Shown here one piece after another: positions 12,581 to 44,537 of a DNA stretch of 64,000 nucleotides. The stretch lies in IMG/VR virus record IMGVR_UViG_3300001683_000022, positions 5,251 through 69,250 of that record, one strand, 5' to 3'. Each line of letters begins with the position of its first letter. The stretch's first letter is position 1. Under the pieces are notes generated by a model. That model made no database searches. It was given only the letters and a program-made list of their open reading frames with translations, and had not been told where the DNA came from. The translations under genes were made by a program, and so were the position numbers. This stretch comes from a virus.

Positions 12581-15500
12581 ATGGCAGTATCAAAGTATTC
12601 GGTATCTTCTACAGGATCTTATTCGCTAAAACAATTAGAGGTTCTTAAAGCCAAAGCGGATAAGGAAAGTAAATTAGGTGGATGGGAATCTTTACCTTTA
12701 GACGAAAATAATCCTGTAACTGATGGGGATACTTTTAACGCTGCCACTGGCCCTAGTGTACGTTTAGTTCCTGATAGGCCAGGACATGTTCTAGATACTT
12801 TTGAGACAGATAAGGGTCGTCCTCTTACTGCTAGGGAGGAATTAGGCAGAGAGGTTGATAGAGGGTACCTTGCTCAAACTTTTAGGCTGGATGCTAGTCA
12901 AATTTCTAATAAGACTTTATTTAATCAAGCAGAAAAAGCTAAACAAAATGTAATAAGAGAATTAGGTGGGGATACTGAAATTCTTGTTAAGGGTAGTAAC
13001 TTACACCGTGATACCGGTGTATTTGGTAGACTCCTTAGGGCTGCCAAAAAGGACGGACAAAATTCAAATGGTGGTACGGAACAGCACTTCAGTGATATTA
13101 ATAATACTCCTGAATTAAATGCTAAGTATCACACCCTAGATAATGCGATTAAGAAGAACTTAGATCTTCAACAGAAAAAAGATGCCCGTGACATTGCTAC
13201 CAAACATTCTGTTAGTGATAAATTTAGAAAGACCCTTCTAGGAGGATCTATAAATGCCGTTGCTGGGGGAGTAACAACCGCGTTCGATATTGGGGCTAAT
13301 GTTATTAATTCTCCTGCTAGAGCGATTCAGTATACCCTCACTAAGAATATATCTAATGAAGATAGGGCAGCTGTTAAGCATCTTAAAATAATGCAAAAAG
13401 CATCTAAGATAAATAATATAGATTACGTACCTTCCGAGAATGAGGAGCGTCTATTAGCAAGTAATCCATCCCAAAAAAGTATAGTAGAAAGATTGGCTAC
13501 GGCTGAGGCTTTAGAGTCTGGTTTCATAGCTAAAATTGATAAAGTTAATGAGCACATAAGTAAGATATTTAATACTGCCGGTACGGATGCACTGGTTAAA
13601 TATGCTGGAGATCTTTATGAATACTCTATTGTTCCTATGGGGCAAGAGGGTATTGAAGATATTCAAAATGGGCAGGTAGCTGAGGGGGTTATTAAACTTT
13701 CAGGAGCTGTATCTAATGCAGCAACTGCAATATTTGGTGCTGCGGCTAGAGAACCTCAAGCTGTAGTAGAAGAGGTAATCAAACAGATCCCTAATGCATT
13801 TGCTGCTACGAGAATGACCGGATCATTTTTCTTTGGTAACTTTACTAAGTTAGCTAGTGAGGCTAGGGATAAATTTATGGAGGTCAATGGTAGACTACCT
13901 GAGGGAGAGGAAGTAAACCGTTTGTTGGTAGATACGGCATTATCAGCTGCAGCTGATACTGTTTCAGATAAGCTTATGGTATCAAAAGGTGGGGTAGCAA
14001 GATCAGTTGTACGTGAAGGAGCTACAGAGGGTACTCAAGACCTTTTAGAGCAAGATGCATATAAACAAGATATTTCTAAGTTAGAAGGTAGGTCTGCATT
14101 TGCTGCTAATGTTTTAGGACAGGTAGCTGGTGGAGGAACTACAGCTGTTACTAGTCCTAAAGCTGCATTAAAAGAAGCAGTAGCTACACCTCTTGCTGTT
14201 GCGGGTGCGCTAGGTAAACCAGCTAAAGCACTTATAAAAGCTCTTACACCTCAAGGTATTCAAAATACAATAACAGAAAAAGCAGATGCACTTAAACAAC
14301 AAGCTAAGGATAGAGCCAATTTAGCTGAAGGTGACTTATCAAGTTTGCCTCCTAAAAATAGGATTGATTATCTAATAGCAAATACCCCTAAAAATGCTTC
14401 TGAAACCCCCGACAATATGGATAAGCATATTGACGATATTAAGGGGGCTATATTTGAAATGCACGATGGACTAAATAAAGAGCTAGAGAACACTGAGGCA
14501 ACTAACGAAGAGCGCGATATACATAGGAAAGAAACTGATGAATATCAGATTAGAGCATTTGCAGCCATAAAAAAACTAAGGGAAGTAAAGATTGGATCAG
14601 CCATAGACGTAGTCATAGGAGCTAAGGAGAGCACTCCTAAGAGCGAAACAGCAATATCTAGTATCATTGGCTCAATGGATTTTGATTCGACAGTCTCAGA
14701 AGAACAGGCTAAGAAATTACTTTCTAGTAACTTATTGTCTGAAGATCAGAAAGTAAAAGTAGAAAGTTATATAGAAAAAAGAAAGTCTATGTCTGAGGTA
14801 TCAGACAATATTCTTAATGGTGGTGAAGGGTTTTTAGGTATTAACGACCATACCAGTGCGGTAGGCTTAGGTGTAGAATCTAATAACAGTAAAGCTACTG
14901 AATCTACTCTAATAGGGTTTAAAGCATGGGCAGAAAGACACTCCAATAAAGCTTCTAAGCTTCAGGATGTGCTTAATGCGTTAACTACTGGAGACATGAA
15001 TGCAGCAAAAAAAGCTCTAGCTGATGCAAATGCTATTGTAGTAGAGGGAAGTACACCTTTTTATTATGATCCAGCAAATTTTGAGCCTTTTACGCGCCTA
15101 GCTAAGACAGTCATATCTGAAGCCAATTTATTGCAGGATGCTTTTAATGAGGTAAAGGGTAAAGCTGTAGAAGCTATCCCTGAACTATCTAAGAGCGAAA
15201 AAATATCTTTGACTGTGAGCCATATAGGTGAGCAGGTAAAAACCTCTGAGAACACTGAAGAAGAGGTAGAGGTAAACACTGAATCTATACCCTCAGAAAA
15301 TAGTACAACAGATACCGTAACTACACCTACACCTACTCAGAATAGTACTGACACAGTAGTTGAGGCATCTAAAGTTTCTCAAGAATCTTTAGATTCTAAT
15401 ATTGCTACTGTTGAAAATAATATATCAAATTTAAGAGAAGAAGATGGGTCTGTTGCCGATGAAAATATGGCTGAATTTACTAAGTTGCGAAAAGAATTAG

Positions 15501-17182
15501 TAGAAGCTACATATAATGCTACGAGAGGTGATAATACAGGAAGCATAGTAGTTGTTAAATCACGCCCAACGTCTAAAGAGGGTGATCCGCAAGTATTGTC
15601 AGGGAAAAAAGTTGAAACAGCAGAAGAAAATATCGAAACTATAATTACTAACGGCATGGCTTCAGGATCAACTACTGATGCTATTATTCAATTAATTAAT
15701 ACTAAATATAGTTTTAACAGTAGTGACCAGAATCTTTTTATTAAATATGTAGAAGATAGGGTTAATAAGGCACCAACTGTAGGGAATAATAAATTGCCAT
15801 TCTCTCAATGGAGAAGAGGTGAAACTACTCAAGTTGTAGCTGAACCTGTAGTAGAGCAAAATACCTCTGGGGGAGTAAAAGCGAGGGTTCTTACATTAAA
15901 TAATGCACATAAATTTCTCACAAAAACTAGATTTAACAATGTTAGTAGTAGTAGTCAAGAGTTCTCAGACTTTAACACGGTCTTGTCTCTTATGGTTGAA
16001 AATGCCTTAGTTACAGATAAGCAGAATAGAGATGAAGCAGAATATATGTCAGATATTTATGAATATATACTTGCTACCTACTCTGGAAATACATTACCTA
16101 AATCAGGTTTAGATCCTTTAATTGTATCCAGTATTAAGAGGATATTTAGCCCCTATAGTGTAGGTAATAGTCTTACCAGAGATTCTAGAGAAATAGGCGG
16201 TATAAGTCTTAAAGATTTAGTGAAATTTAAAGCATCTACTATTATGCATACCACTAAGGATGCTTTAGGTAATGCACATAAAGAGGATACTTTATCTGAG
16301 CAAGATAAAAATAATCTAAAAGATATAAATACTTTTGTAAAAGGCTTATCTAAGGTTATTAAAGAACAAATATTTAATTCTAAGGAAACAGCACAGTCTG
16401 CAAGTAAAACAGAACAAACTACTTACACTGACTCTAAGGGTAAAACACGAACAATTACAACACCGTTAGGACATATACAGAATCCCCTTATTTATTTTAT
16501 GAAAGCTAAGCAGATCACTTCGCTTAGGATGGATCGAAAAGAGGATGGGACATATGAGGTAATTGAATATCTGCGTAATAACCCTGATACTAATCCTGAG
16601 ATGGATCAGAACTTCTATGATTCCATTGGTTTAGCTATTGTGGAATGGATTAAGAATGATTCTCAGAGTACTCTTGAAAATTATGCTGAAGATCTGAAAG
16701 CAATCCTTGGATTACCTGACGGTATTGAACCATCTGATTTAGCATGGGAGAAGATTAGGTTTGGGGGTACTGTACGTACAAGACTTGCATCTGATATAGG
16801 CGGTAAGATTGCTAAAATTTTAGGTATGTCACAGGATAATACTGCTGATGGCTCCATCTATTCTAAGATAGAAGCAAATTTAGGACTTATAGCTATAGAT
16901 GTATTGGAGAGAGAAGGGCATGTAGAACTTTCTGAATTACCTGCTGCACTTATGAAAGATATGGTGGGCAAGAAGGATTCTACCGATAGTTCTCAACTTA
17001 ATATTGAAGAAGAAAATGGAGCTCCTACCTTTCTTGTAAAAGCTGCTGAAGGTACATACCTAGCAGAAAATAGTGATGAAAAACTTCAAGGATTGTCTAA
17101 CGATTTAAGACGTATTAAAGAGGCAGGTACAAAATCCAAGGAAATAATTAAAACCTTGTTTGATGTGGGTCACTACAGATAA
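12581..17182 (+). CDS. virion RNA polymerase, N-terminal part (frameshifted)
   Basis: 1533 aa, no Cys seen, EGATEG.Q motif; with the next ORF totals ~3550 aa as in N4 gp50. Confidence 0.85.
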   Translation: MAVSKYSVSSTGSYSLKQLEVLKAKADKESKLGGWESLPLDENNPVTDGDTFNAATGPSVRLVPDRPGHVLDTFETDKGRPLTAREELGREVDRGYLAQTFRLDASQISNKTLFNQAEKAKQNVIRELGGDTEILVKGSNLHRDTGVFGRLLRAAKKDGQNSNGGTEQHFSDINNTPELNAKYHTLDNAIKKNLDLQQKKDARDIATKHSVSDKFRKTLLGGSINAVAGGVTTAFDIGANVINSPARAIQYTLTKNISNEDRAAVKHLKIMQKASKINNIDYVPSENEERLLASNPSQKSIVERLATAEALESGFIAKIDKVNEHISKIFNTAGTDALVKYAGDLYEYSIVPMGQEGIEDIQNGQVAEGVIKLSGAVSNAATAIFGAAAREPQAVVEEVIKQIPNAFAATRMTGSFFFGNFTKLASEARDKFMEVNGRLPEGEEVNRLLVDTALSAAADTVSDKLMVSKGGVARSVVREGATEGTQDLLEQDAYKQDISKLEGRSAFAANVLGQVAGGGTTAVTSPKAALKEAVATPLAVAGALGKPAKALIKALTPQGIQNTITEKADALKQQAKDRANLAEGDLSSLPPKNRIDYLIANTPKNASETPDNMDKHIDDIKGAIFEMHDGLNKELENTEATNEERDIHRKETDEYQIRAFAAIKKLREVKIGSAIDVVIGAKESTPKSETAISSIIGSMDFDSTVSEEQAKKLLSSNLLSEDQKVKVESYIEKRKSMSEVSDNILNGGEGFLGINDHTSAVGLGVESNNSKATESTLIGFKAWAERHSNKASKLQDVLNALTTGDMNAAKKALADANAIVVEGSTPFYYDPANFEPFTRLAKTVISEANLLQDAFNEVKGKAVEAIPELSKSEKISLTVSHIGEQVKTSENTEEEVEVNTESIPSENSTTDTVTTPTPTQNSTDTVVEASKVSQESLDSNIATVENNISNLREEDGSVADENMAEFTKLRKELVEATYNATRGDNTGSIVVVKSRPTSKEGDPQVLSGKKVETAEENIETIITNGMASGSTTDAIIQLINTKYSFNSSDQNLFIKYVEDRVNKAPTVGNNKLPFSQWRRGETTQVVAEPVVEQNTSGGVKARVLTLNNAHKFLTKTRFNNVSSSSQEFSDFNTVLSLMVENALVTDKQNRDEAEYMSDIYEYILATYSGNTLPKSGLDPLIVSSIKRIFSPYSVGNSLTRDSREIGGISLKDLVKFKASTIMHTTKDALGNAHKEDTLSEQDKNNLKDINTFVKGLSKVIKEQIFNSKETAQSASKTEQTTYTDSKGKTRTITTPLGHIQNPLIYFMKAKQITSLRMDRKEDGTYEVIEYLRNNPDTNPEMDQNFYDSIGLAIVEWIKNDSQSTLENYAEDLKAILGLPDGIEPSDLAWEKIRFGGTVRTRLASDIGGKIAKILGMSQDNTADGSIYSKIEANLGLIAIDVLEREGHVELSELPAALMKDMVGKKDSTDSSQLNIEEENGAPTFLVKAAEGTYLAENSDEKLQGLSNDLRRIKEAGTKSKEIIKTLFDVGHYR

Positions 17183-20100
17183 GGATGTTTCACAGACACT
17201 TAAAGGGACTCTTCAAGATACCTCTACAACCCAACGTGAGGGTCTGTTAAAACAATCTCAGGTGGAGAATAAAGTATTCACTAAAATGGTTGACATGGTC
17301 AATCTAATAGGCAGAGATGCCATATTAGCTATCATAGGTAATGTTACTGAAGATGATCTATCTCAGGAACATATTACTAGAAGAAAAGGAATCGAGAGTA
17401 ATAATAAATCTCTTGAAAGAGGGGTAGATGATTTCAAAGCATTCCAAGAATCCTTAACAGCTGATGAGATATTTTACTTACTTCATAATGTATGGAGATC
17501 TGGGCGTATAGGGGTCAATGGTAAGATTAATAATCAAACCAATAAATACATGAGATGGATGTTTGGCCCTAAGTCTTGGGAAGTTGAGATAGACGTTAAG
17601 AAAAATGATGAAAAACTAGGACAATTTAAATTAGCTATCCTAGAATCTTTTGGTATTAAGATTGAACATCTAAAAAATATTGAAGAGGTAGAATCTAAAT
17701 TTCAGGAGGTATATGATAAATTTTCTAAAAATACCAATATGGGATTTGTTCGGCTTCACGCCAAAAAGAATAGTGAAGAATCCACTAGTGAAGGGGTAGA
17801 TATAATTGTAAAGGCAGTTAAAGATGCTGGGGAAGGGATGCACTCCTTTGCAGGTTTGATTGCTTTACGTGAGTATCATTACGCTGTTTCAGAAGACTCT
17901 AAAAGATCAACAAAGTTTACAACTACCCTAAGTAGAGAGATAGACGGCATAACCAATGGTGTATTAATTGGTTTGGTTCTTATGGGTGGAGGTAAGAATT
18001 TTGATGAGATGCGACCTAAGCTAGAAGCTGCTGGATTATTTCCTGATCCTACAATGGATTACCAAAAATGGTATAACGCTGTTGAGTCTGGTGATATTGT
18101 TCATGATGATTTATATGAAGGCTTAACTAGGGATATCATTAGTGGTAAGGCTACGGCTAAAAAATTAATTACTAACCCGAAGAGTTTAATTAAAGATCAT
18201 CCAGTACATAAGCACTACACTAAACTTGTTAGCTTATCAGGGAATGCGCAAAATGCTATTGACGTAATTGATACTACATTCTCTATAGTGGGGGATATCA
18301 TAGCTGACGGTACCATTACAAAGATAGGTAGAAAGCTCTTTAAATATCCCCTGATGATTACTCTATTTGGTGCATCTGTAAATAAAGTAGCAGATGCTTT
18401 AGCAGAAGAAACTATAGAGAAGATATATGACTTAGGAATGAAAGCGGAAGATACAAGTAATAACTCTGCAAAACAAGAGAGATTATTTACCGAAGTAAAT
18501 AACTATATTGCTACCCTGTTAGGAAATACAGAGACAAAAATTGTTAATGGAAGAGCAAGAGATTTTACGTTTACTCCAACACAGGTAAATATCCTAAGTG
18601 GCAAAGTATCTGCTATGTATAGAGGGTTACTACAGGAATCCTTAGAAAAAAACTATGGGGATTTTATTAGAAACAGAGCTACATTTAATTCAGTGTTTGA
18701 GGTGATCCAACGTACCTTTGACTTAATGTTTGAGAAGAAGTATGCAGAGAAATTAAAAGAGATAAATGCAAATAAGGAGGGAGTTACTCCTATATTGGCT
18801 TTATCTAAAGAAGCTACTATTGCTTTAGTTAAATCTCTTAGAGACTTCCATCCTTCACTAAAACATGCCCTTTCTGATGAAAATATAGAGACAGAATTAT
18901 CATTCCTTAAAGGAAAATATAAACCTGACTATTCTGAAACACATACCACTCAAGTTCAATATGCTAGCCCTCATAAGCCTGAAAGAAAATTCTACCAAAA
19001 GAGTACAGAAACAGGTATGTGGGAAGACTATATTAAGGACGACTCAGTAACTAGTGCTGTAGGTCACGGTACTAGTTACCAGCTTGAAGACCCAGGACTA
19101 TCTCCCACTATTACACTTATTCACAATACTGATTCGACAGTACCCATTTCGGTATTTAATGCAGGGTTTGAAGTGTTAAATGTACATGATGCCTCGCAGG
19201 GTGCGTTGGATGTTATAGCAGATATGGCAGAAACTATGAATGCTTCTCTTGCTACTAGTATGTTCGATCACGATGTCTTTGGTGCAGCATTAGCCTCATT
19301 AAATAGAGCTATTGATAGTTTAGATGCTACGGACAAGAAGAAAATAGATAACCTTATTGCGGGTTCTGGGGGATCTTCCCTTAACCCCCTAAGTAATTAT
19401 TTCTTAGATAGTAATGGCGATGGAATATTTCTCTCCCTAGAAGAGTATATTGACTCCATACAAGGTGTTGGAGAGGAGGCCAATTTAGTTACTGCAGAAA
19501 TTAATGACCGTGTAGGTAAGGTAGCTAATTACTCAGGTATGGTTGGATCTAATAGAGGAAAGTCAACTGACTCAACTAGTGGGCATGATTCAGATGTAAC
19601 TAATTTAATAGAGGAAGTTAATGAAGGAAAACCTCTTACCCTAGAAGAGTATTTTGACAAGCAAAGGAAAGAACATGACCTGAGTGACTCAACAGAGCCA
19701 AGTCAGACAGTGATAGCTTCATGGATGAAAGGTTATGACCAGCTTGGCTCAACAGATAAGGCACAACCATTTGACTTCAAAGGTGAACCTACTAGGAAGC
19801 TTACAGGAGCTAATACTGAATCTACTTTTGAATCGCTAGGTAAGATAGATAAGCAAAATAGTGATTCTACAGCTCATACCACTCATCTAAGGGGCGTAAT
19901 ACATAATCTGATAAACAAGGTTATCACTCCTCTTGAATTGTACGTACAAAGGACTAAAGAGCAGAACTCTGGTGGATTTGATCCTGCGTACAATCGTATG
20001 GTTGTAAATGTATCAAATACTACCTCTCCTACAGCATCGGGTATACAGATGTCTGCCCAGACAGTGTTTGTACATGAACTGACCCATCACATTACAGAGA

Positions 20101-23100
20101 GTGCTTTAGAGAACAAAGTAGAAAACCAGTTAATAATTAATCGTATTACAAGACTATTTAACCATGTTAATGATAGCCTTTCAGAAGCGGATAGGACTAA
20201 GTATGCGTACATTTTTGATAACCAAAATCATACAGAAGTAAAAGAGGTTACTGCTTTAGGTTCTGTTGCTACAGGTACTAAGAATAACGGAATAAAAGAA
20301 TTTATAGCATTTGGTATGTCTGAGCCGGGATTTATTAAGTTACTGTCAGAGATGGATACTCCTAAATCCGCTAAGATTTTTGGGGATACTATTTCTGGTA
20401 CCATTTCTAACATATTTAATTTATTAATGGATCTGTGGCAAACCAAAGTAAAGAATAATAATGGTAAGGTTTCTACTGAATTAGATTTATTAGTAGCTAA
20501 GCTTTCTACGGCTCATATCAAGCAATCAAATATTTTATTTAGACAATTTGAGATCACTAACGGTATGGATCTTAAAGCTGCCCAGATTATTAGAGATACG
20601 GTATTGGCTCCTATACATAAATTCTTATCTAGTCAGGCAGTACAAAATTCTAAGAAGAAATCCATAAGCAATATAGGTAAGATTGCTGAGAAGATAACTA
20701 AAGTATCATTTAAAGGCTTCCAGAGGGCTGTAGGAGACTCTTTACTACTAGCGGATATAACCGAGAAGAGTTTACTTAGAAGCCTTGTTACAGAGGCTGT
20801 AGGTAATACAGTGGATGTTGCTAAATACCATACATTATTAAGTGCGTCTAAAAAGTTTATAGACACTCTCAGAGAGGAGATAGCTACCACGGTAGATAAG
20901 TTCCTTAGAGAATCTTTTGTCGGTGGCTCTGTGGATGCAAAGACCTCTGTAGCTATTACTAAAGTAATACTTAAAGGCGACATGGAAGCTCTATTTAATT
21001 TGTATGAAGTAGAGCAGATACAAGATTATTTGGATAATGAGAATAAACTAAATACACAAATACAAACCGTAGAAGATAGGTTGGTTACCCGTACTGAAGG
21101 AAATTATTACATAAACAACTCTCGTAGCTTAGGCCATTTTATGGTTACAGGGCAGCATTTAATTGATGGGGCTGGGCTACATAACGTAGAACAAATAGCT
21201 AAGCAATTATCCATTAGAAAAGGTAGGAATCTTGAGCAAGACCAGAAAAGTCTTAAAGAGGATTTAACTAGACTCTCTAGATTATATGCTTTGAAATATT
21301 CTTCTACTGCACATAAGGACTTAGTGGCTAAATCCATTAAAGCTGAATTTGCTGAGAGTAAAGAAGAGAATGGTATTCTTAATACTATTAAACAGCACAG
21401 AGATTATAAGAAAGATCAGCTGGATAGAATTTTAGGTGGTAATGAGATTCTGGTTGTGGATGGGGGGATAAAGGAGAATTATAATCCTCATACATCTGCT
21501 GTTATAGCTACTGCTATAGAAGGACAGAAGCTACTTAAACAAGGATTTACTAGATCAGCTAATCCAATCAAAGGAAGTAAATTAGATAAGGGTGGTGTTA
21601 AGTATATGTACTACTCTGATGTAGCGGGGGTAGATACATATAATAAAATGATTGTATCTATGACCAGTAAAAATTCAGAGTTAAGTGATATACCTACTGG
21701 ATACGCATCCGTTGATGGTTTACGTAACTATATGGGACAACAGCTTATATCTAAATTAGATAGGGTTGCACTTGATAAGGAAGTATCTAAACAGAGAAGA
21801 TCCATTATAGTTGATCCGCAGCCATCTTCTTTTATTCCTTCATTTAATAGGAAGGGGGTATTTGTAGGGGCTAAGTATGCTATTACAGAGGCAGAGAAAG
21901 ATTCTATCTTACAAAAGAATAATTCCTTTAGTAATGTTCTTGGTTCAATGTCTGCAAGTATTTCTGATAAGGTGAATACAGAGGCTATTAACAAGGAAGC
22001 TGTAGATATTGCTTATAAAGACTTTAAGGATAACTATGCTAAGAATCCTAATGCATTTGTAGATGTTAGTAAGACTAGTAAAGATCCTGCTTATAGGGAG
22101 ACTTATAATATTCTACCTAGTGAGATGAAGAAATATATGAAGGAGACTTGGGGTACTGATGGATTTTTAATTAGGAGAGAGGTCGTAAGTACTTTCTTCG
22201 GATATAGAAAATTAAGTATTACTAATTGGATTAGACCTAGTACAGATTTAGAAAAAATTAATCATAAAATTACTAGAATCATTGGGGATAGTCTGTATAA
22301 AAACCTAAATTTTAATAAGGTTAAGACGGTAGAAAATGTATGGCAAGAAGTAATAAAGACTACTAAGGACACTATTGTAATTAAGAATCTTTCGACTCTT
22401 ACAGGTAACATAGCTAGTAATAATTGGTTACTTTGGTTGTCTGGTGTGGATAAGGCTGATATTTATAAGTATCAAGCCATAGGTGTAGTTGCTTTACAAT
22501 CCTATTTAAAGGACAGTGTAAAGCTAGGGCAGTTAGAGTTAAGACTTAAACATAACCCTAATGTTGCAGGTATTAAATCTAAGATTAATAATCTTAAGCA
22601 TCAAATAGCTAGTAATCCTGTTAAGCCTATGGTGGATTCAGGTATCTTCCAAACTATTGTAGAGGATATTGCTAATGATACTGAGTTGTACACTTACAAG
22701 AGTAAGTTAGATGAAATTGTTGAGCCATTAACTAATAGAATTAATTCTAAGGTTAAGGAAGGTGTGTCTCAGGTAGCAATGACACATGATACTCAGCTAT
22801 ATAAGTTTTTAAGGGATTCTACCCAGTATAGTGATTTCATCGCTAGATTTGCACTACACCAACATAATCTAAAAAAGGGTATGAGTGAAGCAGATTCTCT
22901 TGTAGATATTGTAGATAGTTTTATTAACTATGACTTACCTACTCATCCTCTGCTTCAGTATGGTAACGATATGGGGTTAATTATGTTTACTAAGTTCTTT
23001 ATCAGGATTCAGAAAGTAATCCTTAAGAAGGTAGGTAAAGCACCTGCAAGATTCTTAGGCTTACAGATGTTGGAAATGTTTACATATAACCAAGCAGATA

Positions 23101-23213
23101 TAACAGATGCAATTGGGACTCCAGATGCAATTTATAATAAATTTCATTTTAATCCGGTGACCCTAATTACACCCATTGTTTCCGAGCTTCCTGCAGTTCA
23201 GGCTACTTATTAG
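17160..23213 (+). CDS. virion RNA polymerase, catalytic and C-terminal part
   Basis: WRSGR, motif A EIDGITNG, motif B RKLFKYPLMITLFG, motif C NVHDA, HELTH, QYSDFIARF, FINYDLP, MFTKFFIRIQKV. Confidence 0.93.
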   Translation: MMWVTTDKDVSQTLKGTLQDTSTTQREGLLKQSQVENKVFTKMVDMVNLIGRDAILAIIGNVTEDDLSQEHITRRKGIESNNKSLERGVDDFKAFQESLTADEIFYLLHNVWRSGRIGVNGKINNQTNKYMRWMFGPKSWEVEIDVKKNDEKLGQFKLAILESFGIKIEHLKNIEEVESKFQEVYDKFSKNTNMGFVRLHAKKNSEESTSEGVDIIVKAVKDAGEGMHSFAGLIALREYHYAVSEDSKRSTKFTTTLSREIDGITNGVLIGLVLMGGGKNFDEMRPKLEAAGLFPDPTMDYQKWYNAVESGDIVHDDLYEGLTRDIISGKATAKKLITNPKSLIKDHPVHKHYTKLVSLSGNAQNAIDVIDTTFSIVGDIIADGTITKIGRKLFKYPLMITLFGASVNKVADALAEETIEKIYDLGMKAEDTSNNSAKQERLFTEVNNYIATLLGNTETKIVNGRARDFTFTPTQVNILSGKVSAMYRGLLQESLEKNYGDFIRNRATFNSVFEVIQRTFDLMFEKKYAEKLKEINANKEGVTPILALSKEATIALVKSLRDFHPSLKHALSDENIETELSFLKGKYKPDYSETHTTQVQYASPHKPERKFYQKSTETGMWEDYIKDDSVTSAVGHGTSYQLEDPGLSPTITLIHNTDSTVPISVFNAGFEVLNVHDASQGALDVIADMAETMNASLATSMFDHDVFGAALASLNRAIDSLDATDKKKIDNLIAGSGGSSLNPLSNYFLDSNGDGIFLSLEEYIDSIQGVGEEANLVTAEINDRVGKVANYSGMVGSNRGKSTDSTSGHDSDVTNLIEEVNEGKPLTLEEYFDKQRKEHDLSDSTEPSQTVIASWMKGYDQLGSTDKAQPFDFKGEPTRKLTGANTESTFESLGKIDKQNSDSTAHTTHLRGVIHNLINKVITPLELYVQRTKEQNSGGFDPAYNRMVVNVSNTTSPTASGIQMSAQTVFVHELTHHITESALENKVENQLIINRITRLFNHVNDSLSEADRTKYAYIFDNQNHTEVKEVTALGSVATGTKNNGIKEFIAFGMSEPGFIKLLSEMDTPKSAKIFGDTISGTISNIFNLLMDLWQTKVKNNNGKVSTELDLLVAKLSTAHIKQSNILFRQFEITNGMDLKAAQIIRDTVLAPIHKFLSSQAVQNSKKKSISNIGKIAEKITKVSFKGFQRAVGDSLLLADITEKSLLRSLVTEAVGNTVDVAKYHTLLSASKKFIDTLREEIATTVDKFLRESFVGGSVDAKTSVAITKVILKGDMEALFNLYEVEQIQDYLDNENKLNTQIQTVEDRLVTRTEGNYYINNSRSLGHFMVTGQHLIDGAGLHNVEQIAKQLSIRKGRNLEQDQKSLKEDLTRLSRLYALKYSSTAHKDLVAKSIKAEFAESKEENGILNTIKQHRDYKKDQLDRILGGNEILVVDGGIKENYNPHTSAVIATAIEGQKLLKQGFTRSANPIKGSKLDKGGVKYMYYSDVAGVDTYNKMIVSMTSKNSELSDIPTGYASVDGLRNYMGQQLISKLDRVALDKEVSKQRRSIIVDPQPSSFIPSFNRKGVFVGAKYAITEAEKDSILQKNNSFSNVLGSMSASISDKVNTEAINKEAVDIAYKDFKDNYAKNPNAFVDVSKTSKDPAYRETYNILPSEMKKYMKETWGTDGFLIRREVVSTFFGYRKLSITNWIRPSTDLEKINHKITRIIGDSLYKNLNFNKVKTVENVWQEVIKTTKDTIVIKNLSTLTGNIASNNWLLWLSGVDKADIYKYQAIGVVALQSYLKDSVKLGQLELRLKHNPNVAGIKSKINNLKHQIASNPVKPMVDSGIFQTIVEDIANDTELYTYKSKLDEIVEPLTNRINSKVKEGVSQVAMTHDTQLYKFLRDSTQYSDFIARFALHQHNLKKGMSEADSLVDIVDSFINYDLPTHPLLQYGNDMGLIMFTKFFIRIQKVILKKVGKAPARFLGLQMLEMFTYNQADITDAIGTPDAIYNKFHFNPVTLITPIVSELPAVQATY

Positions 23214-31943: not shown

Positions 31944-32129
31944 TTAGTCCTTAATAATATAATTACCTACAAAAGAGTTAAATTTTATTGATGTAAATCC
32001 ACTTAATTTTAAAATACTGGATTTAATATTAGGATTTAACTCGGCTTCCTTTAATAAAAAAGCTTTATAGTCTAACCCATATTCATAAAGGAGTCCTGCA
32101 TCAATCACAATGCTCCTAAAACTACACAT
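31944..32129 (-). CDS. hypothetical protein
   Basis: ORF overlapping the polymerase stop codon. Confidence 0.5.
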   Translation of the reverse strand: MCSFRSIVIDAGLLYEYGLDYKAFLLKEAELNPNIKSSILKLSGFTSIKFNSFVGNYIIKD

Positions 32130-33219
32130 TTTGTACTCTCATTAGTATTTCCCTTTTAGTTGCTTTATTAGGTATTGTTATTGGTTTGTTCCACGTAGGA
32201 AATATGTCTATCTCTGCACCTAATTTAACAGTGTCATGTTTAATTTCCTCTAATTCTTGCCATTCCATACACTCAACAAGATTTCTATTTACCCATTCCA
32301 CACAACCTATAGTGTCCTCTGTAATGAGATATATAGCGTCATGAATTAATGCAATAGGGGAAATCTTGTATCTATATTTAGAGGCATGTACCCTCCCCAT
32401 AAATGCATTAGCAGCTCTATTATTTAACAATCCATAAGATTGTCCTAAAGCATTACCTGCTGTGCGTCCCTCTGCTCCAGCAGCGTGGGGTGTATTTCTT
32501 TTATTTAAAAGTGTCTGAGCAAGTATAGGGGTTCGTACACGTAACCCGAAGGCGACAGTAACGTATCCATCTTTTGTTGCTTGTTCTAGCTTAGAGGCTA
32601 CCCAATCATCGGATACCTTATAGAGCTTATGGTATTGATCCTCAATATCCATAGCAGCTTCTATAGTTAACCCAATATTCTTAACTAGGGTAGCCCATGT
32701 ACCTTGGTAGGTAAGGGCAAATGTAGGTATCTTGCTTTCTTGACGTAGGTGTGGATACGCATGCTTAATGCTATTAATGCTGTCTACGGTATCTACAATA
32801 TCTGGCATCAGATGTTTGAAGTAAGCATACGCCCTCAGGCAATGACCGTCATAATTATCAAGGTAAACTTTTAATTTGTTAGGATCCTTAGTAGTAAGCG
32901 CAGATATATAATCCTCAAGAGAATTAAAATCAGCACCTAAAAATACTTTACCCTTAGGACTATAGAAGCATTGCTTTACTATCTTTGCATACTTAGAGCC
33001 ACTAGGAAGATTTTGTAAATTAGGCCCACTACTGCTAAGCCTACCTGACACTGTTCCATTGAGATTAAAGTTACCATGAAGATAATAAACACCATCTTCT
33101 TTATAGATACTATTTTTTTCAAAAGCTTTAATGAATGTACCTAAAATTTTACTTACTTCAGATACACTAATCAAATCTTTAAGTAGCTTAGCCGTAGCAA
33201 TAGCTTCCTGTCTATCCAT
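32122..33219 (-). CDS. DNA polymerase A, C-terminal polymerase subunit
   Basis: GTVSGRLSSSGPNLQNLP, motif A DFNSLE, motif B RQESKIPTFALTYQG, motif C IHDA. Confidence 0.93.
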   Translation of the reverse strand: MDRQEAIATAKLLKDLISVSEVSKILGTFIKAFEKNSIYKEDGVYYLHGNFNLNGTVSGRLSSSGPNLQNLPSGSKYAKIVKQCFYSPKGKVFLGADFNSLEDYISALTTKDPNKLKVYLDNYDGHCLRAYAYFKHLMPDIVDTVDSINSIKHAYPHLRQESKIPTFALTYQGTWATLVKNIGLTIEAAMDIEDQYHKLYKVSDDWVASKLEQATKDGYVTVAFGLRVRTPILAQTLLNKRNTPHAAGAEGRTAGNALGQSYGLLNNRAANAFMGRVHASKYRYKISPIALIHDAIYLITEDTIGCVEWVNRNLVECMEWQELEEIKHDTVKLGAEIDIFPTWNKPITIPNKATKREILMRVQNV

Positions 33220-34780
33220 TAAGTTCCTCCTCCGTAAGTGAATATTCTTGAATTAATTGGTTTAAATGTTTGGTTAGTACTTTAGCCCCTACAGCAGGTA
33301 AATCCGTTTTAGTAGTATCTAAAATTTCTAATCCTAAATGTTCATGAAGTAGCTGGGCTACTTGCTTATTACTCGCTGGATTAAATGTAATCATATCGAA
33401 TTCTTCTATCGCTACTTGTTTTACCTTTAATAGTAAATTCTTCTTAGCCCACGCATCCTTACGTAGTACATCCTCGAAAGTACTTATAATAGGTGAAGCA
33501 CTGATACTGCTTGTATGTTTATAAAGTACATTACTTAACTCAGATTTGGCTATTATTACTTGATCCATATCTATAGGCATACCTGTTAATTCCATCTGTA
33601 AGATAGTTTTAATGGATGGCTTCATTATGGTTTCATATATTTCCAATTGGGAATCTTTTACCATAATAGGATAATTCTTATTGAATACATACCATGTAGA
33701 TAGACAATCAATTAAGTTATATTTGAGTAAGGTGTCTTTAGGAATCTTACGTATATTCTTGATATCATCTACAGCATAATTACCTGCATATTCAAATGCC
33801 TGATCTTTCAATCCAAGTTTGTTACCTGCTGTGGTATTGGTAGCTAAATAGCTGATAGCTTTTGTACACTCGAAGTCCCTGGTAAGGATCTCAATTCCTC
33901 TAAGCATTCCCTTTATATCTAATAGGGAATCCATAAATAATTCATAGATTAAAATCTTAATATCATAATTTGCATTATGGTATATGAGCTTACCCTTATA
34001 TGATCTAAAGAACTCTTTCAGTAATCTTTTTATCTGGGGGTTATGTTCTTTATAACCAAATAATACTACACCGCTGTCACACATTTCTCGCCCAGTGGGA
34101 AATGCTTCGTAGTCACATAAAAATGCTAAACCATTGTGCTGATCTAGACCAAAACCAATAGTACCTAATCCTGCTTTGTGGAACTTAAGGGAGAAGGTTT
34201 CACAATCACATGTAAGGGCCTCAAATTCATGAAGCTTAGCCAATGCAGTCCTAATATCTAAAAAGTCCTTAGGATAGCTCTGAGAGTGAATTATGTCTAT
34301 TCCTATCTCCTTATAAGAACCTACCGTATGGTCTGCTACAGCCTTATTGGTAATATCTATTTTCTCCTGCAATACAGGATTATAGAATAATGCTTTATAG
34401 TTAGGGATTAAGAAGATATTTAAGTGATTAAAGTCCTTAATTGTACAAAGTACTGCTGATCCATAATAGGGCTCAGTCTTCCTCACTTTAGTCAAAGCCT
34501 TAAAATAGTTTCCATTGGCTACTACTAAGGTTTTTACGTCTAAACTATCTAACGCGGGAAGTAAGGTGCTTAAATATTCTTTACAAAATCCAATAGGAGC
34601 ATTACCTTTATCATTATAGTTAAGACTAAAAGAAATAATGTCTTCTTCTGCTATACCTAATTTTACTAGCGGATGTACATAAGCATCTTCTATTTCTTTT
34701 TTATCTAATCTAGATTCTTCAACTAATACGGCAATTTTATATTTGTTATTAGGATTTTCCTTATGGATTATGTGTTTCAT
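33212..34780 (-). CDS. DNA polymerase A, N-terminal / 3'-5' exonuclease subunit
   Basis: ExoI DCETF, ExoII YHNANYD, ExoIII YNLID, MELTGMPID, FNPASNKQV. Confidence 0.92.
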   Translation of the reverse strand: MKHIIHKENPNNKYKIAVLVEESRLDKKEIEDAYVHPLVKLGIAEEDIISFSLNYNDKGNAPIGFCKEYLSTLLPALDSLDVKTLVVANGNYFKALTKVRKTEPYYGSAVLCTIKDFNHLNIFLIPNYKALFYNPVLQEKIDITNKAVADHTVGSYKEIGIDIIHSQSYPKDFLDIRTALAKLHEFEALTCDCETFSLKFHKAGLGTIGFGLDQHNGLAFLCDYEAFPTGREMCDSGVVLFGYKEHNPQIKRLLKEFFRSYKGKLIYHNANYDIKILIYELFMDSLLDIKGMLRGIEILTRDFECTKAISYLATNTTAGNKLGLKDQAFEYAGNYAVDDIKNIRKIPKDTLLKYNLIDCLSTWYVFNKNYPIMVKDSQLEIYETIMKPSIKTILQMELTGMPIDMDQVIIAKSELSNVLYKHTSSISASPIISTFEDVLRKDAWAKKNLLLKVKQVAIEEFDMITFNPASNKQVAQLLHEHLGLEILDTTKTDLPAVGAKVLTKHLNQLIQEYSLTEEELNG

Positions 34781-34781
34781 A

Positions 34782-35099
34782 TTATTTAACTAATAGGTGG
34801 AGTAAGTAATACTGCTTAACATCCTCTAAAATTATTAAGTTATCTTGCACATAACCTAATATATGGGGTGCTGCCTCTAACTGGGGTATCTTATAATTAT
34901 TAAACACCAATGGGTGAAGGTACTCAGGTATCACATAGACAATATCAGCTAAAGAATTAGAAAGATTTAGTCCATGCCTAAAGTAATTTACAGTCCTTGC
35001 ATATAAATAATCATTTACCTTAATTTCTTTAGGGAATAGTACTTTTACGCAATTTTCTAGTAGTTTTAATTTAATCGTTGGTTCTAGGAGACTCTTCAT
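34782..35099 (-). CDS. hypothetical protein
   Basis: ORF in operon context. Confidence 0.6.
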   Translation of the reverse strand: MKSLLEPTIKLKLLENCVKVLFPKEIKVNDYLYARTVNYFRHGLNLSNSLADIVYVIPEYLHPLVFNNYKIPQLEAAPHILGYVQDNLIILEDVKQYYLLHLLVK

Positions 35100-35349
35100 T
35101 TGATGTATCCTCTAACAATAGATTGTTTGCCTTATATTGAATATATTCCTCATATGATAAAATATTTATTGTTACTTTAAAATCCTTACAAGGGCCTATT
35201 TTTGTAATTTCGTTGTAATTATCTACATATTTTTCTGCAGTTTTAAGGGAAGTTATTAATGCTATTGCATCATCATAGGGCATGACTAACTCATAATATC
35301 CCAACTTCACAACCCCATAAACTGCCTTACTTACTGGGGGCTTTTTCAT
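35071..35349 (-). CDS. hypothetical protein
   Basis: ORF with AAGGA Shine-Dalgarno. Confidence 0.65.
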   Translation of the reverse strand: MKKPPVSKAVYGVVKLGYYELVMPYDDAIALITSLKTAEKYVDNYNEITKIGPCKDFKVTINILSYEEYIQYKANNLLLEDTSNEESPRTND

Positions 35350-35360
35350 TATTATTCCTT

Positions 35361-35729
35361 TTAGCGAATCCGAACTGATGAAACAGTTACTTCATCTAAA
35401 TAGATCGGCATAATATGACTTTTAAATAGCTTATCGGCAAGTATGGTTGTATAAACTAATCCCCTTAAACCAATAACAGCTTCTGTAACTCCCAAATCTA
35501 CTAAGTGTTTTGTGGTATGTTCGGCTGCTTTATGCATATCCATCCTAAAAGTTTGGGGAGATCTAATCTTCATTACTTTTATATAATTAAATTCGATATC
35601 TTTTCTAATTTCAAGAATATGTTCCGTATCTTCATGGGATAGTACGGGGTATTCTGCAATACTTTGACTTGTAAGGTTGATTTTTTTCATTTTTTTAATG
35701 TTAGTATTTTTATTCATCATATATTCCAT
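35361..35729 (-). CDS. hypothetical protein
   Basis: ORF in operon context. Confidence 0.6.
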   Translation of the reverse strand: MEYMMNKNTNIKKMKKINLTSQSIAEYPVLSHEDTEHILEIRKDIEFNYIKVMKIRSPQTFRMDMHKAAEHTTKHLVDLGVTEAVIGLRGLVYTTILADKLFKSHIMPIYLDEVTVSSVRIR

Positions 35730-35958
35730 AAGCTTTCTTTACTATGGCAGCCTCTGCTAGTAAATCAGTGCAACCTAATAAATATACTAAGGTGTCCCGA
35801 TTATTTGTAGCTTCGATATAAAGGTCGTCAGCTATGTATTTAATCCGCTCAGATTTAGTCATTATGACTTCGATATGGCGATCTATTATTAGGTCTAGCT
35901 CGTCATTTCTATTCATCACTGTTTTCCTCTGCTTGCTCAATAACATGCTCAATATCAC
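35710..35958 (-). CDS. hypothetical protein (start probably at the internal MNRND)
   Basis: ORF overlapping both neighbours. Confidence 0.55.
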   Translation of the reverse strand: MILSMLLSKQRKTVMNRNDELDLIIDRHIEVIMTKSERIKYIADDLYIEATNNRDTLVYLLGCTDLLAEAAIVKKAYGIYDE

Positions 35959-36199
35959 TGAATATGCTCATGTTGTAAGTCCCGAAATTTGGGTCATAAT
36001 AAGCTTTCATTCGGGTTAGTACTTTTTTAGCTTGCGCGGTTGAAAGTGCGTAATCCACGCCTGTTGCCATATCCCCGTTATGGTTATAATCTAAGGCAAT
36101 TTCTTTAATGTCCTCGATATGCCATAGATCTACGAAGCATTCGTCCTTGAGGATCGCTTCTTTGTACTGCAGTATTTCATCCCACTCTTTTTGGCTCAT
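35909..36199 (-). CDS. acidic hypothetical protein
   Basis: Strong GGAGGT Shine-Dalgarno; WHIEDI motif. Confidence 0.7.
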   Translation of the reverse strand: MSQKEWDEILQYKEAILKDECFVDLWHIEDIKEIALDYNHNGDMATGVDYALSTAQAKKVLTRMKAYYDPNFGTYNMSIFSDIEHVIEQAEENSDE

Positions 36200-36275
36200 T
36201 GTTTACCTCCAGCGTTTTGTAGCTTGCCTCTAAATCTGTTAACCTACTCATTTTTAATATTCTCTATTAATTAAT

Positions 36276-36527
36276 ATGAATGATTCTTATAACTCTAAAA
36301 ATATAAAAATCTTAAAGGATACATCGGTATTTGATTTTGTTTTAATGGAAGAATTAGCCACTAAATTCTCTAGACCCCTTACGTGGATTAAACGAAGTTT
36401 TGAAGCCTGTAGATTAGCAGGAGTAGATCCCCGAGATTACTTTATACCTAAGTATTTAGAAGGTAAAAATATCCCCGAGAATCTAGACGTATCTGCTATC
36501 AGTAAAGAAATACAAAGGCGTTTATAG
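36276..36527 (+). CDS. 83-aa protein with a GyrB-like N-terminal strap
   Basis: Sits cleanly in the gap between minus-strand genes; begins MNDSYNSKNIKILK. Confidence 0.75.
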   Translation: MNDSYNSKNIKILKDTSVFDFVLMEELATKFSRPLTWIKRSFEACRLAGVDPRDYFIPKYLEGKNIPENLDVSAISKEIQRRL

Positions 36528-36533
36528 CCATAC

Positions 36534-36559
36534 TTTCACAGTAGCGGTCGGAGACCGCT
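36534..36559. promoter_or_regulatory. TTTCACAG + C-GGA-G triloop hairpin (copy 1)
   Basis: AGCGGTC-GGA-GACCGCT perfect 7-bp stem. Confidence 0.55.
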
Positions 36560-36569
36560 CTGTAGCTCT

Positions 36570-38543
36570 TTATTTAATAGGGCATGCTCCAGACGCACAT
36601 TCATCTGCTGTCATTTCTTGATCCATCATATCCGCAGAAGGTAATATAAATTTCTGTAACTTTTTAACATAAGAATCATATACCCCTTTAGAAACTACCT
36701 CTTGAGGTAGGTAAGGATAGCCAAGGTCTAAAGCAGTCTTAGTTGGGTCAGCCCTATACAAGAAACTTACTCCAACATAATGTTCCCAATTGACTAATAA
36801 CCAATCAATAATAGCTGGAACCTCTTCAGGAGAATAACTAATAGTATTAGATACATTCTGTTGACACCAATGAATTTGGTATTTTTTATATCTATCTAAT
36901 TGTCCTATAGCAGATTCTTGATTAACCTCAACAATTGAACCATCTGGTTTGCTTACTTTAGTAAAAGGTACGTGATCCCATTTAACAGGGAAGTTAACAA
37001 TCATACCTTCAGGATCTAAAGGATTAGGTTTTACCTCATACCCTGCCTTAGTTAGTGCAGGTAAAAGAGGATCATGTAAACCAAAGTTAATATTATTAAA
37101 AATATATTTACCTAAAGGAACATGAACACCTTCAGGACATTGCATTACCTTACTTAATGTTCCAGACGGTTTAATAGTTGTAATATTCTTAGGTCTTTGT
37201 AGTTCTAATTCATCTGCCATTGAATATGCAGCTGAAATAGCCACCCTTTTCATAGACTCTAAATCATAAGAAGATAAATCATCTCTCTGAGCAATACCTG
37301 TTAGTCCAACACCACACAATCTCAGGAACTCATTATTTAAGTGCCAAGATTCTTGTAATACTCCATCTTCTAAGTTAACTAAGGTTTGTCTGTAGTTAGC
37401 TCTAGCAGCTAAATAAATAGTATTATGAAGTCCTGTAGTATCCCCAATGAATTTAGAAATATCTATTTCCACTAAGTTACAAAAACTTTTATTACCTAAT
37501 AGAATTTCTGCACATGGATTTACAGTACTAAACCAGGGTGCTCTATTTAAAGCAGCTTCTCCATTAATAAAACCTGGTTCACTTCCGCCTGATTCTTCCA
37601 TCAGAGTAAAGATACTTGTTAACTCTTTTTTGGATGGTTTTGACGTAAATACTAATGAATTATTGGATTGTGATCTTTGAGGATTACCGTCCCAGAACTC
37701 TCTTTTGGCAATCGCAAAGGCTTCCCACTCAGGCTTATTAAATTCAAATAAGGCAATCTGAGCACTCCTACGGGACGATAATATTGTACCTAACCAATTT
37801 ACCACATCAAGGATATCTAACCTGCTAAGAAGCTCTCCTGCCTTGTTATTAAGGATTCCTGCAATAGCTACATAAGCTTTTGAGATTGCTTCATCACCTG
37901 AACTAATCCAGCCGTATCCTGATAATCTTCCCCCTGCCGGTCTTAGCTCAGAGAAGTTTAATACTAAGGTATTTGCTGGGTATTTCCCTGCAAGCAATTT
38001 ACCAATAGATTTACTCCATGCTTCTGCAGAATCTCCTACAGTGATAGTCCATGTCTTAGTTTCTTTATCCCATGATTCTTTATTATTTTCACAGCCTCCT
38101 TTTTCTGTGCGGGTAGTACGAATTACTTCAATATTCTTAATAGGATGCTTAAAGCCATTAAGAGTACCTACGATAGGTTTAAATCCTACACCACATCCTT
38201 GCATTAACAGCCAAAGCACATCCACTACATCGTAGACAGTTTCTACTAAAGTGCCTGAACAGTTAAATTGGCTAGATTCCCTTTTCTTGGAAACATCTGT
38301 ACCACCTAACCACAATGTTCTACCTGAAGTAGATACCTTTTTTTCTGACATTACCTGCTCAAAAGCAGATAACTCCTCTAATTCTGTATGGCTTAGAGGC
38401 TCTCCTTTAGCTCTTTCCCATAACCATTGCTGGTGTCCTTTAACTCTTGCACAAATATCATCCCAAGACTCAAAAGAAGTTTCTTCTTTATTAGTGGGTC
38501 TGGCATATGTTCTACGTATAACTACATCAGATCTTGTTTCCAT
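36570..38543 (-). CDS. nrdJ: class II (B12-dependent) ribonucleotide reductase
   Basis: SGRTLWLGG, FNCS, GCGVGF, NPCAEI, CNL.E, TTIKPSGTLS, C-terminal ECASGACPIK. Confidence 0.93.
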   Translation of the reverse strand: METRSDVVIRRTYARPTNKEETSFESWDDICARVKGHQQWLWERAKGEPLSHTELEELSAFEQVMSEKKVSTSGRTLWLGGTDVSKKRESSQFNCSGTLVETVYDVVDVLWLLMQGCGVGFKPIVGTLNGFKHPIKNIEVIRTTRTEKGGCENNKESWDKETKTWTITVGDSAEAWSKSIGKLLAGKYPANTLVLNFSELRPAGGRLSGYGWISSGDEAISKAYVAIAGILNNKAGELLSRLDILDVVNWLGTILSSRRSAQIALFEFNKPEWEAFAIAKREFWDGNPQRSQSNNSLVFTSKPSKKELTSIFTLMEESGGSEPGFINGEAALNRAPWFSTVNPCAEILLGNKSFCNLVEIDISKFIGDTTGLHNTIYLAARANYRQTLVNLEDGVLQESWHLNNEFLRLCGVGLTGIAQRDDLSSYDLESMKRVAISAAYSMADELELQRPKNITTIKPSGTLSKVMQCPEGVHVPLGKYIFNNINFGLHDPLLPALTKAGYEVKPNPLDPEGMIVNFPVKWDHVPFTKVSKPDGSIVEVNQESAIGQLDRYKKYQIHWCQQNVSNTISYSPEEVPAIIDWLLVNWEHYVGVSFLYRADPTKTALDLGYPYLPQEVVSKGVYDSYVKKLQKFILPSADMMDQEMTADECASGACPIK

Positions 38544-44150: not shown

Positions 44151-44260
44151 GGCCGATACCTCATAATTAAGTTAAAAGCTCTTAAACGGCTTCTGAGGCC
44201 CTAGAATAGTTACTATCTCTCTATACTAAAAACCCCGCATAATGCAGGGCTTAATTATTA

Positions 44261-44330
44261 AATATTCCTCATACTTCCTCATACTTCCACATACTTCCTC
44301 ATTGTTCCTCATTGTTCCTCATTCTTACTC
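44261..44330. repeat. seven tandem 10-bp repeats (ATACTTCCTC / ATTGTTCCTC)
   Basis: Directly visible in the sequence. Confidence 0.9.
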
Positions 44331-44537
44331 TTCTTCAGCGTTACAGTATTCACACGCCATCTCATTTTCCGAGAGGTCTTTACCGTGCTTACACAAATAC
44401 CATGGACGTATAGCTGAGCAATCATCACATTGCAGAGTACCTCCGTGGATATTGGTGTTACCGCACTGCATTTCAACGGCTTTGTAGTCGAAGCCTGATG
44501 GAATGTATTGCATGACTTTATTTGTGCAGATTGACAT
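44325..44537 (-). CDS. small Cys-rich, probably Zn-binding early protein
   Basis: C..CG..CDDC..CKHG..CEYC; TGGAG Shine-Dalgarno. Confidence 0.75.
   Translation of the reverse strand: MSICTNKVMQYIPSGFDYKAVEMQCGNTNIHGGTLQCDDCSAIRPWYLCKHGKDLSENEMACEYCNAEEE

Follow-up and report, generated by a model that had tools for sequence, protein, structure and literature searches.

A phage protein family with a GyrB-like N-terminal arm: a candidate mimic of the strap that closes the topoisomerase N-gate

Introduction

Few inhibitors of gyrase, a central target of antibiotics, are known to be encoded by phages. In gyrase, ATP binding dimerises the GyrB ATPase domains, and the N-gate closes as each GyrB arm, with its residues Tyr5 and Ile10, crosses the ATP lid of the partner. 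Dimerisation of GyrB is reported to require Ile10 together with Tyr5 (PMC4585971), and a 2026 preprint describes the arm of the partner as covering Gly101-Gly102 of GyrB in the ATP state (10.64898/2026.05.07.723447).

A 2024 review of protein inhibitors of gyrase names only two phage gyrase inhibitors, Igy (LUZ24 gp9) and Gip (CGP3 Cg1978), both of them, like the protein described below, small phage proteins, and both acting on host gyrase without breaks (PMC10886550). Igy is presented there as a DNA mimic on GyrB, unlike an arm mimic, and a comparison of Igy with our protein gave no local alignment at E values up to 100; Gip binds GyrA, and it is by this description only that it is set apart from our protein (PMC10886550). 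The pentapeptide-repeat proteins MfpA and Qnr also engage the GyrB ATPase domains by mimicry, with MfpA characterised as a T-segment mimic (PMC7980463). These proteins imitate DNA rather than a protein arm, adopt a beta-helix fold and have no sequence relation to the protein described here. A further parallel comes from the eukaryotic dominant-negative 'microproteins', short proteins reduced to the dimerisation element of a larger protein, which they thereby titrate; with a virus set against a host enzyme, and an arm of only 10 residues, this analogy is conceptual only.

Here we describe an 83-residue protein, beginning MNDSYNSKNIKILK, that is encoded in a 64,000-nucleotide stretch of viral DNA, the whole of which we call the window. 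It shares the pattern of the GyrB/ParE arm at the same position and in the same register, with Tyr5 and, further on, Ile10 followed by a basic residue, I/V and L. After residue 17 the likeness ends, and the arm is joined to an unrelated four-helix domain. In the literature searched we found no phage protein described as a GyrB-arm mimic, and the function and mechanism of the family to which our protein belongs are undescribed there.

Results

A lone plus-strand gene in a marine N4-like phage

The virus record that contains the window measures 69,250 bp and was judged 93% complete; by its sequence, the window is part of an N4-like phage (Schitoviridae). The virion RNA polymerase family phrog_2206 is matched by two adjacent ORFs (12581-17182 and 17160-23213), and portal, terminase, primase and tail genes are also present, the primase sharing 55-56% identity with its counterparts in Pseudoalteromonas phage pYD6-A and in a group of Vibrio N4-like phages. 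The two polymerase ORFs, of 1533 and 2017 aa, overlap and match phrog_2206 profile positions 40-1191 and 2266-3370, respectively; the gene may truly be split, or a frameshift or an assembly error may account for the two ORFs. From 23385 to 46347, a region of about 23 kb, the genes lie on the minus strand and include the replication genes of an N4-like phage. The DNA polymerase ORF within it (33212-34780, 522 aa) matches only positions 513-941 of the 1445 in the phrog_17 profile and is overlapped by 8 bases by a 365-aa ORF (32122-33219); the DNA polymerase of this phage may be split in two ORFs.

Amid these genes, the plus-strand ORF at 36276-36527 had been picked out in the sequence-only reading as the lone gene of its orientation. 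A survey of ORFs of at least 80 aa across 23385-46347 bears this out: all other plus-strand ORFs overlap longer or better minus-strand ORFs, and the description as a lone antisense gene therefore stands. One competitor, 44242-44487, was considered as a second plus-strand gene and rejected, being of low complexity and overlapping a better minus-strand ORF. The ORF at 36276-36527, recognised by ORF calling, by HMM and by its homologues, is a real gene. An in-frame stop codon lies upstream at 36255-36257, and the ATG at 36276 is the first start codon after it. A start at a downstream Met, which had also been considered, is discounted, because the conserved arm described below is encoded upstream of that Met and the frame does not open before 36276.

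Between the ORF and the divergent minus-strand gene at 35909-36199 lies an intergenic region of 76 bp (36200-36275), in which a promoter scan found no promoter-like site and no sigma-70 consensus. The divergent neighbour has GGAGG 7 nt before its ATG (36200-36215). No Shine-Dalgarno sequence was found in 36260-36275, ahead of the ORF itself, where the leader is AT-rich; this counts against the reading that we prefer. On the other side, a GC-rich hairpin of 7 bp with a 3-nt loop (GGA) can be read from the sequence at 36543-36559, in the 42 bp that separate the stop codon of the ORF from that of a convergent ribonucleotide reductase gene. The hairpin, which a terminator scan did not call, is possibly a terminator; in shape it presumably resembles the promoter hairpins of the N4 virion polymerase, a terminator being the simpler reading. 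A ribonucleotide reductase gene stands near a family member twice, in the window (36570-38543) and in an unrelated viral contig (L085, 1873-3822), and with two cases this may be chance.

The ORF points the same way as the structural (late) genes. Its late expression may be argued from this orientation, by analogy with coliphage N4 alone, and its product could possibly switch off early transcription, which in coliphage N4 is carried out by the virion polymerase and needs host gyrase (PMC4496689). In a cold-seep metatranscriptome library, a 230-nt contig corresponds to 36278-36507, almost exactly the ORF, at a depth of 59, with lower depths for contigs at 35489-35743 (24) and 36570-36605 (14.3); such contigs give neither strand nor level, DNA can occur in such a library, and the uncovered parts of 35000-38000 are no sign of silence. 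The 230-nt contig is only a hint that the ORF is transcribed.

Several metagenome runs yield contigs that break off or branch on either side of the ORF, at 36134-36163 and at 36570-36571, their loose ends differing in sequence, and one metagenome contig of 12.4 kb has an insertion of about 192 bases at 36570/36571. The ORF appears to be a cassette that varies from strain to strain of this phage. At least 56% of the words sampled from a 3-kb stretch were found in DNA runs of six studies (two possible source studies having been left out), from hydrothermal-vent, cold-seep and marine samples and a coded organism, and six seawater runs that name no study also held 56% of the sampled words.

The arm is the best-conserved part of a widespread phage family

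The ORF product matches the HMM of phrog_18265, a phage family of unknown function, with an E value of 5.4e-17 (residues 4-80 on profile positions 5-83 of 94), and no family was found for it in Pfam (E up to 10), NCBIfam or PADLOC. Homologues in a large protein collection share from 99% and 86% down to about 30% identity, and tblastn located relatives in 16 phage records of unrelated kinds, among them Escherichia phage Av-05 (Vequintavirinae) and four other Escherichia phages, as well as Shewanella phages 1/4 and 1/40 and six Vibrio phage records, 37-40 kb. An exhaustive HMMER search returned 113 representatives of clusters at 50% identity (E up to 0.001). Two were left out before motifs were counted, namely P0088, which matches residues 30-71 only and does so inside a 192-aa protein, and P0118, a 1231-aa repeat protein with a 25-residue match, leaving 111.

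Conservation across the family is highest at positions 5-13 (Y-x4-I-[KR]-[IV]-L; mean of 2.80 bits versus 2.05 elsewhere), encoded in the window by 36288-36314 (YNSKNIKIL), a stretch also marked out by its matrix score, its in-register alignment with GyrB and its contacts in the predicted complex (see below). The strict pattern Y-x4-I-x-[IV] occurs in 102 of the 111 representatives, and three of the other nine, probably cut short at the N-terminus, miss the whole region. A MAFFT alignment of 116 sequences has Y5 in 110, I10 in 109, I/V at position 12 in 110 and L13 in 79, with Ala at position 7 in 88, while Y5, I10, R40 and Y60 are the only nearly invariant columns in a second alignment (113 sequences). 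The homologues thus keep the N-terminus that the sequence-only reading had singled out, and its conservation across the family shows that the arm is under selection. Two observations count against reading the arm as a mimic: a minority of relatives have K, R or M at position 13, and the arm is not always terminal, the Tyr being more than 25 residues away from the called start in 41 of the 102 relatives that bear the motif.

In 26 of the 111 relatives (within P0010-P0114), the arm is preceded by an N-terminal C4 zinc ribbon laid out as CxxC, 6-22 residues, CSxxC and then basic residues. Several of these zinc-ribbon relatives have K, R, Q or M in place of L at motif position 13. The ribbon is of the treble-clef type that is also found in the zinc-finger gyrase inhibitor YacG, and hhalign of the zinc-ribbon relatives against four YacG sequences (from five loci fetched) gave 89.5% over 28 columns, covering the cysteine motif only. 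In Pfam, eight of ten zinc-ribbon relatives matched DUF2116 below threshold and one of ten matched YacG, at an E value of 0.93. The window ORF, with a single Cys and no zinc ribbon, does not have the YacG layout of a C4 finger followed by a GyrB-binding C-terminal tail, and we regard the YacG likeness of the zinc-ribbon relatives as a lead only.

The genes of the family have varied neighbours. In Av-05 and Shewanella phage 1/4 a divergent junction directly precedes the gene, as is typical of regulators; one viral contig has a family member between terminase and portal, and another has one before an Xre-like gene and DNA polymerase. A search of viral contigs with a six-sequence alignment gave three loci without a shared neighbourhood, and a search with the single window protein gave no match. 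The lack of a fixed neighbourhood fits the expectation for an accessory gene. A pattern search of bacterial genomes yielded 74 matches, none a family relative, and the family profile matched none of 401 Pseudomonadota genomes in a search run without a positive control.

The match to the GyrB arm lies far beyond chance

E. coli K-12 GyrB (NC_000913.3) begins MSNSYDSSSIKVLKGLDAV. When the fetched sequence was set beside the ORF product without gaps, 8 of 14 N-terminal residues were identical, with Tyr5 and Ile10 in register, in agreement with what had been claimed at first sight. To score this likeness we used a log-odds matrix of family positions 5-13, from which the window ORF was left out. 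The E. coli GyrB 9-mer reaches 26.0 bits, against 26.9 for the window's own 9-mer, with a tail probability of 1.7e-9 per position, equivalent to 0.002 expected occurrences per 1.35 million residues (a proteome). A six-frame scan of 400 kb around gyrB in the Enterobacter hormaechei chromosome placed the GyrB arm first of 575,686 positions, at 26.0 bits, with the runner-up at 17.7 bits; the E. coli ParE arm, at 18.6 bits, would come second in that scan. The arm pattern is present in all 80 gammaproteobacterial GyrB N-termini fetched, and two GyrB N-termini (L054 and L075) differ from the window's 10-mer at two positions only. The match between the window ORF and the GyrB arm is far beyond chance. 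In phages with known hosts, the phage arms differ from the GyrB arm of the host rather than being identical to it, an observation that counts against mimicry.

The likeness is confined to the arm. The sole alignment given by hhalign between the family and GyrB residues 1-220 pairs residues 1-17 with residues 1-17, at an E value of 5.7e-4 for this single comparison and a probability of 29%, and the similarity thus ends before the GHKL fold. Of what makes up a type IIA topoisomerase B subunit, the ORF has the arm, including Tyr5 and Ile10, and no GHKL ATPase fold, transducer or TOPRIM domain was found in its 83 aa (Pfam, E up to 10; hhalign). Beyond the arm the protein is not a piece of GyrB, in line with the sequence-only reading, which had argued against a truncated gyrB from the point at which the similarity stops. 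A whole-family profile searched against PDB sequences found no GyrB or ParE, its best match having an E value of 1 and the matches being to unrelated proteins; this counts against mimicry but says little, because a 9-residue motif cannot carry a local HMM hit.

The remainder of the protein is a small helical domain

An AlphaFold2 model computed with the family alignment has a mean pLDDT of 90.9. Residues 1-19 show no regular secondary structure in the monomer and have a pLDDT of 76-78, below that of the helical domain, in which helices span residues 20-30, 35-47, 56-61 and 70-82 (pLDDT 94-96). This four-helix domain (residues 20-83, encoded by 36333-36524) has no recognisable fold relative in the structure model and fold searches. 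Foldseek against the PDB gave a best E value of 1.6, with helix-turn-helix entries at TM-scores of at most 0.36, and VIA-align against 48,161 chains gave a best Z of 4.3. In BFVD there was one clear match only (31% identical, E 2e-4), probably a family member. Neither the solved structures nor the predicted viral ones offer a convincing match to the helical domain outside the family.

The weak top matches in the fold searches are helix-turn-helix regulators, and they raise the question of whether the protein could be a small regulator in which the arm is a structural element of its own, used to pack within the molecule or to form an arm-exchanged homodimer, the likeness to GyrB being convergent. 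An arm that is not disordered in the monomer (pLDDT 76-78) would suit such a role, as would the place of the gene after a divergent junction in Av-05 and Shewanella phage 1/4. The fold matches themselves, however, have E values of at least 0.4 and TM-scores of at most 0.48, no helix-turn-helix domain was matched in the window ORF by Pfam or NCBIfam profiles, no family was assigned by Pfam, NCBIfam or PADLOC, and the median pI of the family is 6.1, not basic. Convergence is also made unlikely by the expectation of 0.002 matches of 26 bits per proteome. Taken together, we consider this explanation quite improbable.

A predicted complex places the arm over the ATP lid of GyrB

We co-folded the window protein, with its alignment, with ATP and residues 15-392 of GyrB (Swiss-Prot GYRB_ECOLI, native arm removed); E. 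coli GyrB is a stand-in for the host enzyme here, which counts against the reading that we prefer. The complex scored 0.78 (runs of 0.78, 0.70 and 0.80), and the best of three controls scored 0.00. Among solved complexes 58 of 80 attain this mark, as do 2 of 110 mismatched pairs, counts that are only a rough guide here because this job contained its own alignment and a ligand. Between runs, contacts agreed to at least 63%, with a partner pLDDT of at least 75. In the model, the best-defined contacts are those of ORF residues 4-13, which lie over the ATP lid against GyrB residues 76, 79-86, 89-94 and 97-108; Ile10 packs against residues 79, 90, 93, 94 and 100-102, and Tyr5 against 76 and 79. The predicted arm site coincides with the place at which, according to the preprint, the partner arm covers Gly101-Gly102 (10.64898/2026.05.07.723447). 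Helix 2 of the ORF (residues 39, 42-43 and 46-49) is predicted to touch the transducer domain at GyrB 280 and 331-346.

The earlier proposal that the first residues would occupy the strap groove of GyrB thus passes its controls in the model, with residues 4-13 as the main predicted contact. Solved GyrB43 dimers exist, however, such as 1EI1, which carries Y5S in the arm (PMC4159350), and with a motif so near the native arm the result may partly reflect memory. The co-fold therefore suggests likeness to the native arm rather than binding of this particular copy. In the helical domain, the residues predicted to contact GyrB (16, 19-21, 25, 39, 42-43 and 46-49) show no excess of conservation over the others (permutation p of 0.70), so that evolutionary support extends to docking of the arm only and not to the detailed pose.

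If the target is a GHKL protein, it would be one of the host; besides GyrB/ParE, the sequence-only reading had put forward a GHKL-type defence ATPase as a possible target. No match to gyrB (TIGR01059), HATPase_c or HATPase_c_3 was found in the phage record (93% complete), in searches whose controls matched 12, 14 and 14 of 14 known genomes, respectively. DNA_gyraseB (PF00204) was likewise found in none of five other phage records with a family member (three complete genomes and two fragments).

Docking of the arm on GyrB or ParE need not mean inhibition. The same evidence (co-fold, matrix and scan) would be expected if the protein tethered or recruited the topoisomerase to the phage DNA or to the replisome, stimulated uncoupled ATP hydrolysis or shielded the ATP lid from toxins by which it is modified or cut. 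Tethering or recruitment could be served by the C4 zinc ribbon and basic tail of the 26 relatives, which could bind DNA or another partner, and family members are located in replication or packaging modules; the window ORF, on the other hand, has no zinc ribbon and no detected DNA-binding family. Shielding finds an argument in the modelled cover of residues 97-108, which includes the cut site of a GyrB-directed peptidase toxin, a toxin that acts on the apo form only (10.64898/2026.05.07.723447). An arm and a domain placed at the dimer interface should, however, sterically bar closure of the N-gate in any case, and we judge docking without inhibition to be rather unlikely.

The same toxin, a C39 peptidase of the CdiA type, needs GyrB residues 2-14 for high-affinity binding (10.64898/2026.05.07.723447), and arm-recognising antagonists thus exist. 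The phage protein might then be a decoy of the GyrB arm that soaks up an arm-recognising toxin or defence effector and leaves the topoisomerase untouched. The contacts between toxin and arm are described in that preprint as mainly main-chain, which would exert no selection for Tyr5 and Ile10 (10.64898/2026.05.07.723447). PADLOC gave no match to a defence family for the window ORF. We know of no arm-recognising factor in phage defence, and a decoy appears to us highly improbable.

Discussion

With a probability that we put at roughly one half, the product of ORF 36276-36527 is a trans-acting arm mimic that caps ATP-bound GyrB/ParE and prevents closure of the N-gate. The core of the sequence-only reading, a strap mimic acting on GyrB/ParE, is in this sense upheld by computation only, through conservation, motif statistics and co-folding, and these three lines support docking of the arm, as judged from sequence and from a model.

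The protein would have two parts, a small four-helix domain and, ahead of it, an extended N-terminal arm (residues 4-13) imitating that of the type IIA topoisomerase B subunit. In the cell, we infer, the phage arm would take the site of the partner arm on ATP-bound host GyrB, and perhaps also on ParE of topoisomerase IV, the choice between the two being a matter of conjecture. Part of the dimer interface would then be filled by the helical domain, in the place that belongs to the partner ATPase domain. With the N-gate unable to close, capture of the T-segment would be prevented, and supercoiling or decatenation would stop without DNA breaks; inhibition through this steric block, and its benefit to the phage, are presumed here.

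For the family as a whole we propose, tentatively, that a widespread group of phage proteins inhibits type IIA topoisomerases by arm mimicry, with a 10-residue copy of the arm laid over the ATP lid and the N-gate locked open, in a manner distinct from all described inhibitors, whether proteins or small molecules. The proposal would extend to at least 113 clusters at 50% identity, from N4-like, rV5-like, 38-40-kb Vibrio myovirus and other phages, and the zinc-ribbon subfamily would add a second, YacG-like handle.

If this is true, block of the N-gate by imitation of the arm would constitute a new inhibitory site on gyrase and offer a short peptide as template. A family spread over unrelated phage groups, at present without an annotated function, would be given one, and a handle would be gained on how phages retune the DNA topology of the host or their own. 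In N4-like phages the link would be a direct one, since the virion polymerase of coliphage N4 needs host gyrase for early transcription (PMC4496689).
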